A stretch of 64,000 nucleotides of DNA from positions 9,982,001 through 10,046,000 of the forward strand of contig CAIIXF020000001.1 of assembly GCA_903813345.2 (NCBI GenBank). Direction: 5' to 3'. Positions 48,801 through 51,249 of the stretch are shown one piece after another (within the stretch, counting starts at the first letter, position 1; each line of letters opens with the position of its first letter). Below the pieces are notes generated by a model. The model saw only the letters and a list, made by a program, of their open reading frames with translations, did no database searches and had not been told where the DNA came from. The stretch is from Owenia fusiformis. Taxonomy: Eukaryota. The translations under genes were made by a program, and so were the position numbers.

Positions 48801-50785
48801 TACCTCATTTTGATGCAAGTAGATATTAAATTCTCACCTGAGAGCTTCACCGGTTGCTTTATTACTGAGGCCTCACCAGTTGCTTTATTACTGAGGCCTC
48901 ACCAGTTGCTTTATTACTGAGGCCTCACCAGTTGCTTTATTACTTCACTGCTATATACAAGTAATAAACATGTACATGTACTGTATATACAGAAGTCTGA
49001 GTATAGTAAACAATGATATGCACTATTATACTCTTTATTTAGCAACTGATTTCCTGTGGCTGAAATCAACTTTAATATTGTCTTAACTTGTTTTACAGGC
49101 AGTTGTCAATGATGGTCTCCATGCTTCAAATGAACCCAGACTTGCTCAATATGTTAGGGGGTAGTGCTAAAGCTGTTATGGTAGAGATAAAAAATTTGGA
49201 GAAATTGAAGGAAATAAAGGTAGGTTATACAGTTGTTATTACTATTTCAGTTTAAATCGAAAGGGATTGTGTTCAAAACTTTAATTTGCTCTTTGAATGT
49301 TCACAATTTAATCCCATGTTATTTCTATGTAATGTTTCTGTACAGTGCTTTACATTTTGTCATAGTCCTACCCTATATGACAAGGTGTGATATTGGGGTA
49401 CTTTCAAATGAAAACAATGGTTTCCCTAAGAAAATGTTTTTGCACTTGCTTGTACATGTATTTGTTGATAGAAATGGACTCATCACCCACTCAATAACTG
49501 ATGGTGATAACATGTAATTGTGTATTGAATATGAGGTTGCTGCATTTGACATTCCACCTTGATGTAATGTATTGATTTCTGTAGGACTTGACTGATGCGG
49601 AGAAGAAGGGTAATGATGACAAAGAGTGGACAGAGTGGCTTGAGAAATATGTTGCCAGGTTGAAAGTTGAAGCTGAAGGGATAGAGAGTATAGAAGAAGT
49701 CAATAGAGCCAGGGTAGAGATGATGGATTCCTGTAATCCAAAGTAAGTGAAATCATGTGATATAGCCAGATTTTATTTAAACCCTTTGTTATCAGACAAA
49801 GGTGATCTTTTGTAATCACTCAACTCCATCCCTCAAACATCTGTTAACAATGGGGCTGTGTTTTCAAGACTTACTGATTTAAATGATTACACTAAAAATC
49901 TCTTGATTTTAATGTTGATATAAGTTAACATATCTGACCTGCAACTTCTATTGATAGTTTTGTTTCCTTTTTATTGGATTCTTAGTGCTTCAATAGTCTC
50001 AATTAAAAATGAACTCATTTTTAAACCTGTATTGAATATTGATGTAACACTCATGGCCAATGTCCAACATCCAACACCCTTTTCCCATCATTGGAAGTAG
50101 ACGAAAGCTTGATGTAAAACAAGTTCTTATTTCTCAAATAGAAAATCGATTTTTGTAGATTTATCTTAAGAAACTACATAGCCCAGAATGCTATTGAGGC
50201 AGCAGAGCGGGGAGATTTTACTGAGGTTAAACGTGTGTTAACCTTGCTGGAGAATCCTTTCAGTGACAGCATAGATTTTAGTGAAGTGGAACCTCAGCCT
50301 TTATCTCAGGATCAAGAAGGTAAAACTTATGTTTCTCCCTTGGATTTTTGCCATTTTGTCATTTTTGCCATTTTGCCAATTCAGAGAATTTCTACCATAT
50401 TGCTTGACCCCTTTAAGGGTTTAGCACTCGTTGCTTTCTATTTTTCTTATTACCAAAATGGGGTCAAGAACATAACATTTCAGGTGATCTTGCTCTTCAG
50501 AGAGCTTCAGAATACAATACCCATGTGCATTGTATTGATATCCGACCTTGAACTAATATGTCACCAAGGACCAATAGAGTTCATATTGCTTTCATAAACC
50601 CATTTATTGTCCTTTGTGTTTTCTGTTTGTTGGGTTTATTCAGCTCATCTGTTGCTTTTATATTTTCAGCTTCATGTAGTGTGGCATCTACATGTGAGAG
50701 GCCTGCAAAGAGCTTCACCGGGATAGCTTATGATAGTCCCCCACCAGACTCTTTACTGGACTTAAGGGTCACCTGATCCTCATAA
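39838..50785 (+). CDS. SELENOO: Selenoprotein O (mitochondrial protein adenylyltransferase/AMPylase, UPF0061), 683 aa with Sec; exons 39838-40301, 41191-41329, 41847-41992, 42951-43074, 43454-43569, 46466-46569, 47442-47611, 48091-48122, 48325-48525, 49099-49219, 49585-49742, 50159-50319, 50670-50785
   Basis: Family motifs [81 protein letters not shown] and NPKFILRNY. Exon lengths sum to 2052 nt (684 codons). The end reads GTC ACC TGA TCC TCA TAA = VTUSS*. The N-terminus is basic and acid-free, like a mitochondrial presequence. Confidence 0.96.
42150..42619. mobile_element. Pogo/Tc2-type MITE in SELENOO intron 3
   Basis: TA-CCGGATTTTCTCGCATATA ... TATATGCGAGAAAATCCGG-TA. Confidence 0.85.
43226..43431. 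mobile_element. CAGTG-ended MITE, copy 1
   Basis: CAGTGATCTC ... GAGATCACTG; internal GCACCCAC repeats; flanks AACAG/TACAG. Confidence 0.8.
43879..46345 (+). mobile_element. Helentron/DINE-like element with a ~338-bp tandem array in SELENOO intron 5
   Basis: 5' TTAGCTCACATGGTGAGCT hairpin; (GTCT/GTCC)n microsatellite; units start at ~43966, 44120, 44465, 44803, 45141, 45477 and 45977; 3' CATGTGAGC plus AGTACC-CAC-GGTACT hairpin. Confidence 0.8.
45683..45836. mobile_element. hAT-type MITE nested in the satellite array
   Basis: TGTAAAAG-CAGTGT ... ACACTG-TGTAAAAG (perfect 8-bp TSD). Confidence 0.85.
46737..47230 (-). mobile_element. Pogo-like deletion derivative with a transposase N-terminal HTH remnant
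   Basis: TA-CTGTAGATTGGGTTAATTT ... AAATTAACCTAATCTACAG-TA; minus-strand ORF includes [31 protein letters not shown]. Confidence 0.8.
48532..48733. mobile_element. CAGTG-ended MITE, copy 2, with 5-bp TSD
   Basis: TAGTT-CAGTGATCTCC ... GGAGAACACTG-TAGTT; homologous to 43226-43431. Confidence 0.85.
48845..48944. repeat. 26-bp minisatellite, ~4 copies
   Basis: CTCACCAGTTGCTTTATTACTGAGGC repeated in tandem. Confidence 0.9.
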
Positions 50786-51186
50786 ACCTTCCTCTGAACA
50801 TGGGCCTAGTGTAACGTATGACATCTTATGAGGACTTTTCAATATGAATTTGCACTATTGCAATCAGTATACTTGGGAAGGTTTTCCTTGTTTGATACTA
50901 TCTAAACAGTACTTGAACTATATATAGCTGTACATTCTTACGTTGCAAAGTTTACACTAAGCGCACAAGCTGACTGGTTGCAGTCCATATACAGTATTTT
51001 ATATATTTCATACATGGATTTTATTAATATAATTATGGAACATATGTATGTATAGCTATATACAGTATAGTACAACATTACATAAAGTATGCAAAGAGCT
51101 ACAATGTGATAAAGAGACATACCCAGGCCAAAAAGAGGGAGTTTATAATTTCAGAGATTGAAAGTCTAGATGTAACATATTTCATG

Positions 51187-51249
51187 TTATATCTGTATGA
51201 CGACTTTTTTCAAAACCTTCTGGTGAAATTAGTCTGACGGGACTGTAAG
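51187..51249 (+). promoter_or_regulatory. SECIS element (type II) in the SELENOO 3'UTR
   Basis: AUGAC (51197) / UGAC (51235) core; helix II GACUUUUUUC:GAAAUUAGUC; unpaired AAA; mini-stem ACC-UUCU-GGU; helix I UUAUAUCU:GGACUGUAA. Confidence 0.9.

Follow-up and report, generated by a model that had tools for sequence, protein, structure and literature searches.

A SELENOO gene of the annelid Owenia fusiformis with a predicted selenocysteine at an in-frame UGA and arginine at the CxxU cysteine position

The SELENOO gene and its relatives

The stretch of DNA analyzed here (64 kb from Owenia fusiformis, referred to as the window) contains a SELENOO gene on the plus strand (39838-50785), which could be assembled within the window from 13 exons with GT-AG introns in every case (Table 1). 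The CDS of 2052 nt corresponds to 683 amino acids, and codon 681 is its sole internal stop. A search with exon 1 retrieved the O. fusiformis record P0001 (UniRef name Selenoprotein O), which has the same start as our model, is identical to it over 680/680 residues and ends at this TGA. Together with a Pfam SelO match (PF02696) of 394.8 bits, far above the curated cut-off of 22.8, this confirms the assignment to SELENOO made in a preliminary description of the sequence. The NCBIfam YdiU-family model was also exceeded (493 versus a cut-off of 431), whereas two bacterial NCBIfam equivalog models stayed under their cut-offs (450 versus 850 and 410 versus 900).

Table 1. Coordinates of the SELENOO features in the window.
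Feature	Position	Strand	Basis
Coding exon 1 with ATG, presequence-like N-terminus	39838-40301	+	same start as P0001
Coding exons 2-5, pseudokinase core	41191-41329, 41847-41992, 42951-43074, 43454-43569	+	gene model
Coding exons 6-7, DYG motif (Asp345) and activation-loop Cys361	46466-46569, 47442-47611	+	gene model
Coding exons 8-12	48091-48122, 48325-48525, 49099-49219, 49585-49742, 50159-50319	+	gene model
Last coding exon, end L-R-V-T-U-S-S-stop	50670-50785	+	sequence, gene model
In-frame TGA, predicted Sec681	50774-50776	+	tails of homologs, Cys in tick SelO and E. coli YdiU
3' UTR	50786-51360	+	transcription as far as 51308 or beyond; read depth tails off by about 51360
Predicted eukaryotic SECIS, form-2 type	51185-51250	+	model of 21 relatives, Rfam, descriptor

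The pseudokinase motifs GQLGDG, the Lys of QLKG, HGV..N.D without the HRD Asp, and DYG are all present, and the residues checked are invariant in 60/60 aligned proteins. Exons 2-5 hold QLKG (Lys173) and the beginning of HGVLNTDN, and the activation-loop motif with its Cys at residue 361 is split by intron 6. The first 50 residues contain no Asp or Glu and seven Arg or Lys and are thus presequence-like; by analogy with homologs, the protein may be located in mitochondria. The gene is an ordinary annelid SELENOO and a member of a known enzyme family.

SelO with selenocysteine has been in print for an annelid since 2012: the available text of Jiang (2012; PMC3473315) lists a single Sec-SelO for each of six invertebrates, the annelid Capitella and the limpet Lottia among them, and the sea squirt and planarian proteins are listed in the accessible parts of two further papers (PMC2874816; PMC3828610). 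Compared with SELENOO of a mollusc, a coral, an echinoderm and the coelacanth, nothing in the worm protein is different in kind. They share the full SelO domain, the activation-loop Cys and the tail PP-x-x-x-x-x-L-R-V-T just ahead of the UGA site. The worm protein and Pecten SelO are 66% identical over 606 aligned columns, and the worm has Ser-Leu where many relatives have Trp-Ala (PPxWAxxLRVT). Mammalian SELENOO (C664-x-x-U667; Han, 2014) also has Sec third from the C-terminus, the two following Ser residues and a presequence-like N-terminus, but it carries Cys three residues before Sec (Sec-3), where the worm has Arg.

The bacterial enzymes used for comparison were E. coli YdiU/SelO (PDB 6K20, 6LNA, 6III, 9JYM, 9JYN, 9L29; match with E of about 1e-102) and Pseudomonas syringae SelO (6EAC). 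The E. coli enzyme has the activation-loop Cys and no local CxxC, and its tail RLEVSCS(S) contains Cys instead of Sec and Glu at Sec-3. The insertion of animal SelO near residues 460-555 is absent from the bacterial proteins, as is the long linker in front of the tail, and the bacterial structures superimpose on a model of a tick homolog with Z 40-51 and rmsd 1.8-2.0 over 459-475 aligned residues. Tick SelO (Rhipicephalus) ends with L-R-V-S-C-S-S, so that a Cys codon stands where the worm has UGA, while Arg at Sec-3 and the activation-loop Cys are as in the worm.

Two groups of animal SelO deviate from this pattern. The Cys forms P0063, P0070, P0096 and P0223 are from ticks (LRVSCSS) or belong to one unnamed arthropod-like protein (LKVSCSS), and represent a change from Sec to Cys that did not create a CxxC. 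The divergent proteins P0045, P0053 and P0082, of which the named ones are from corals, end with LNM[RQ]L[TS], and the CNxxD pattern of the activation loop was not found in them. They are possibly a second paralog with Sec and without a partner of the Cys361 type.

Besides SELENOO, the window contains a stop-free stretch of 381 codons on the minus strand (35181-36323) with a Pfam RVT_1 match of 88.5 bits, which probably belongs to a non-LTR retrotransposon. Intron 5 of SELENOO contains tandem arrays (43967-45680) whose repeat units measure about 152 and 337 nt, and further arrays are located at 10317-11038 (109 nt), 11401-13070 (136 nt) and 53566-54268 (135 nt); the array at 28733-29618 repeats the 136-nt unit of 11401-13070 on the opposite strand. 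Two stop-free stretches on the plus strand, 9638-10192 and 33-443 (185 and 137 codons), are exon-like and appear to belong to neighbouring genes; a Pfam match was found for neither of them.

The in-frame TGA and the SECIS element

The TGA is followed by TCC TCA TAA, that is Ser-Ser-stop, which conforms to the C-terminal tail [C/U]-x-x> of the SelO family and matches the Cys-Ser-Ser tail of the tick and bacterial homologs. To read the codon as a true stop, with a protein of 680 amino acids and a hairpin downstream that occurs by chance, is in line with the end of P0001, but the match of the tails argues against it, as do related sequences in metagenomes. Using the pattern PP-x-W-x-x-x-[LI]-x-V-[TS]-TGA-S-S, which leaves out Cys three residues before Sec by design, we found 53 metagenome loci with a non-Cys tail. 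In 46 of them the reading frame has the form TGA-Ser-Ser-stop, with 41 Arg, three Lys and two Gln at Sec-3; as the pattern required TGA-TCN and barred codons starting with T at Sec-3, these numbers give no ratio of Arg to Cys. Only the first two letters of the second Ser codon were fixed by the pattern, and the stop nevertheless follows directly in these 46 loci, whereas the remaining seven matches look like chance. In addition, Sec-SelO is reported for all six invertebrates in the available text of Jiang (2012; PMC3473315).

The SECIS element is located in the 3' UTR, with an AUGA core at 51197-51200, a helix formed by 51202-51211 and 51225-51234, unpaired AA from 51212, a short apical helix and GA at 51236-51237. 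The core starts 420 nt past the TGA and the Rfam match 412 nt past it. Generic tests give only moderate support, and the Rfam and fold results among them are also in line with a true stop: Rfam SECIS_1 scores 17.7 bits (E 3.7) versus a gathering score of 35, the z-score of the fold is -1.26 with 21/200 shuffles equally good, and a loose SECIS descriptor also matches in 205/5000 shuffles of the UTR and at six further sites of the window. Comparison with relatives provides much stronger evidence. A covariance model built from the elements of 21 relatives at metagenome loci, with none from the window, finds 51185-51250 as the sole strong match in the window (37.8 bits, with a rough E of 4.7e-6), and the runner-up among the 55 matches listed reaches 17.3 bits, about 20 bits lower. 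In metagenome loci with at least 900 nt downstream of the TGA the descriptor matches in 25/35 sense and 0/35 antisense sequences, compared with 2/37 upstream stretches. Rfam SECIS_1 matched in nine of 20 loci taken from the 53, and all of these matches were under the gathering score. The 21 elements are paired to 91.3%, with double changes at 11/12 pairs, but we give little weight to these counts because the descriptor used for selection demands pairing. The preliminary description had reported a well-formed SECIS about 410 nt downstream; its presence holds, while good form is not self-evident from the element itself.

Transcription of this region was followed in RNA data with the same species label, comprising three raw-read runs and one contig set (four runs from two studies), over the positions 49500-51900. 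The read support covers the last two joints (exons 11-13) of the twelve SELENOO introns: 49742/50159 is spanned by 77, 66 and 64 reads and 50319/50670 by 61, 57 and 38 reads in the three runs, with one contig in addition for each. First mates over the exons are almost all on the minus strand, which is the expectation for plus-strand RNA in most stranded libraries. One spliced contig of 1288 nt extends from exon 11 to 51308, and the depth over 51201-51281 is 6.7, 4.65 and 2.4 in the three runs. Transcripts ending before position 51190, which had been named as evidence against recoding, are not what the data indicate, since the contig and the read depth extend across the SECIS.

Among the 40 of 68 variants listed from the RNA reads on 49500-51900, none affects the TGA or the codons after it, and 50773 C>T directly in front of it is synonymous. 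A weakly supported variant, 51201 C>T in three of five reads of run X19, lies at a free position after the AUGA core of the SECIS, where a change is expected to be tolerated. Just beyond the 3' UTR, at 51525-51900, reads map to both strands of a multi-copy element with many differences from the window and probably come from other copies of this element.

Taken together, the U-S-S tail aligned with homologs, the SECIS and the transcribed 3' UTR agree with the hidden Sec recoding proposed earlier, and on sequence grounds the reading of UGA 681 as Sec is well supported; that the codon is a true stop appears extremely unlikely. The expected truncation of the protein record directly ahead of Sec was likewise confirmed, and the annotation of P0001 should be extended by the three missing residues U-S-S. 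U occurs in 0/433 proteins of the collection used, well-annotated vertebrates included, and as the collection itself may for this reason cut or drop records with U, we make no claim that databases truncate all invertebrate SELENOO.

Arginine at the position of the CxxU cysteine

CxxU is usually described as a conserved redox motif of animal SELENOO. In the worm this mammalian form is absent, and residue 678 is Arg (codon AGG, 50765-50767). The preliminary description had regarded RxxU as a special variant, and the alignment of C-termini it called for does not bear this out. Of 120 proteins from the search with exon 1, 97 could be classified including the worm (23 rows were dropped as fragments or other ends), with Arg in 62, Cys in 12, Lys in ten, Gln in four, Val in three, Thr and Ile in two each and His and Ser in one each. 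Named invertebrates without the worm itself gave 82 records, of which 15 were dropped for the same reasons; the other 67, counted as records and not as species and with molluscs over-represented, have Arg (47), Lys (6), Cys (4), Gln (3), Val (3), Thr (2), His (1) or Ser (1) at this position. The four Cys records are from amphioxus (three) and a glass sponge (one). Thus, Arg appears to be the usual residue three before Sec in invertebrates, and this position does not seem to be constrained to Cys. RxxU is the common state in the invertebrate records examined, for which the preliminary description had itself foreseen that the novelty would go and the Sec call stand.

The picture in named vertebrates, counted without 12 unnamed vertebrate rows, is different. 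Cys is present in mammals (44/44), birds (24/25), lepidosaurs (11/12), neopterygian fishes (26/26), amphibians (12/17) and turtle or crocodilian records (1/3), and the non-Cys cases in these tetrapod groups are unclassifiable ends except for three frogs with Ser. The coelacanth has Arg (1/1, a single record), cartilaginous fishes have Leu in 4/6 with two unclassifiable, and sturgeon and paddlefish have Ala (2/2). Among the named records, Cys at Sec-3 is found in tetrapods, neopterygian fishes, amphioxus and one sponge. The frog records P0345, P0353 and P0364 represent a natural SxxU form like the mutant of Han (2014). In contrast to the variable position 678, the surrounding tail is conserved, with Leu/Ile677 in 60/60, Val679 in 59/60 and Thr/Ser680 in 60/60 proteins.

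For 143 representatives of the family, the accessible part of Dudkiewicz (2012; PMC3281104) gives [CU]xx> in 111 and Cxx[CU]xx> in 12 and describes the metazoan branch as mostly Cxx[CU]xx>. Our counts qualify this view, as only 4/67 named invertebrate records fit. Among the papers listed by literature searches, judged largely by titles and the opening of abstracts, none was found to state Arg as the invertebrate norm; the Arg state may already be visible in alignment supplements (Jiang, 2012; Dudkiewicz, 2012, Fig. S1).

According to an earlier suggestion, the CxxU Cys disappeared in the lineage of the worm, leaving a simpler redox switch of a distinct kind that relies solely on a long-range Se-S bridge. 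Several points are in line with this idea: Cys361 is kept, as had been noted before, and aligns with Cys272 of E. coli, all 44 mammalian records have Cys at Sec-3, the accessible text of Han (2014; PMC3994087) proposes a catalytic role for the Sec of CxxU and a resolving one for its Cys, and a Se-S bridge may well exist. However, with Arg in 47/67 invertebrate records and in the coelacanth nothing is special to this lineage, so that the claimed novelty is refuted by the counts, and the bacterial enzyme that bears the bridge is also without a CxxC. We consider such a distinct switch very unlikely.

A related idea is that Sec has its resolving partner further up the C-terminal linker, in Cys648 or Cys654, in place of the CxxU Cys. 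At first sight this is in line with a Cys 5-45 residues upstream in 73/85 non-Cys proteins versus 3/12 Cys proteins. But 61% of 41-residue segments hold a Cys as background, the frequency in the linker equals that of the protein body (2.4%), the alignment shows no conservation at Cys648 or Cys654, and the CxxU Cys occurs together with a linker Cys in many reptiles and amphibians. Three independent pairs on well-supported branches, with a median sign-test p of 1, mean that the tree decides neither way. Compensation by a linker Cys is not supported by the background rate, the unconserved columns and the co-occurrence with the CxxU Cys, and we regard it as very unlikely.

On a quick tree of 54 proteins, built without the tail and poorly resolved in its deep branches, at least five changes between Cys and non-Cys are required, with gain and loss not separable. 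Parsimony at equal cost on a conventional species tree, which includes the coelacanth with one record, favours non-Cys at the animal root (4 versus 5 changes) and at the jawed-vertebrate node (2 versus 3) and gives a tie at the chordate node; this preference is gone or reversed when gains are weighted 1.5 to 2 times as heavily as losses. CxxU is restricted to certain lineages and may have several origins. Somewhat more specifically, we put forward tentatively, as a possibility that falls a little short of probable, that non-Cys (probably Arg) is ancestral in bilaterians and jawed vertebrates, that Cys was gained separately in amphioxus, neopterygian fishes and tetrapods, and that the conserved unit would be [LI]-x-V-[TS]-U/C-S-S with CxxU not being an ancestral working unit. 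A single CGY-to-TGY change would suffice for Arg to Cys. A conserved unit of this kind would be expected if the tail is docked into the active site and Sec acts there on its own.

Possible tail docking and a possible role of Sec681

The activation-loop Cys is kept in 59/60 aligned proteins. In E. coli SelO its counterpart Cys272 forms a regulatory disulfide with Cys476, as stated in the accessible part of a review (PMC7278666); the tail Cys of E. coli is also 476 when counted along our alignment with the tagged chain. More recently, SelO was reported to hydrolyse NAD+ to NMN and AMP (Jia et al., Cell 2026), which we cite from the available text of two commentaries on this single study, of which one was written by the study's own authors (PMC13391479; PMC13443136). 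According to them, NAD+ hydrolysis requires the tail Sec and AMPylation can do without it, with mammalian and E. coli proteins as the basis. In the light of these reports, the redox switch of AMPylation assumed in the preliminary description is incomplete.

A structure model was available for tick SelO (R-V-S-C-S-S), with a mean pLDDT of 85.8 and low confidence in the tail (mean of 54 for residues 641-648). It aligns with NAD-bound YdiU (9jym) with Z 50.1 and rmsd 2.0 over 473 residues, the last aligned pair being residue 647 of the model and 477 of the chain, whereas apo and AMPNPP-bound YdiU chains align with the model only to residue 467. Subject to the low confidence of the modelled tail, this would fit with docking of the tail in the NAD-bound state.

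Based on established eukaryotic Sec decoding, we assume that the SECIS recruits the Sec machinery and that UGA 681 would be read as Sec to give a protein with the C-terminal U-S-S tail, while termination at the UGA would lead to a form of 680 amino acids without it. As judged from homologs, the protein presumably enters the mitochondria and AMPylates substrates, and its tail would reach the active site, where Sec681 would act without a neighbouring Cys. The most likely role of Sec681 is in NAD+ hydrolysis, for which it would be required; in addition, it may be linked to Cys361 by a reversible Se-S bond in the same way as Cys476 to Cys272 in E. coli. The variability of position 678 between fixed neighbours agrees with the idea that neither role needs Cys at Sec-3. 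By analogy with its homologs, the worm protein would have both AMPylase and NADase activity, and it is highly probable that the locus encodes an ordinary annelid SELENOO in which UGA is read as Sec, presumably a mitochondrial AMPylase and NADase with a lone Sec681 that acts without a local Cys, as the tail Cys does in bacteria.

For specialists in selenoproteins this is a useful footnote and not a new system. The counts weaken a thioredoxin-like CxxU reading of SELENOO and favour a lone Sec. If Cys was indeed gained repeatedly, the natural forms with R, K, L, A and S offer a ready test of the importance of Cys664 in mammals. Furthermore, if the NADase result of 2026 carries over to the worm, an expressed form of 680 amino acids would be an AMPylase without NADase activity.
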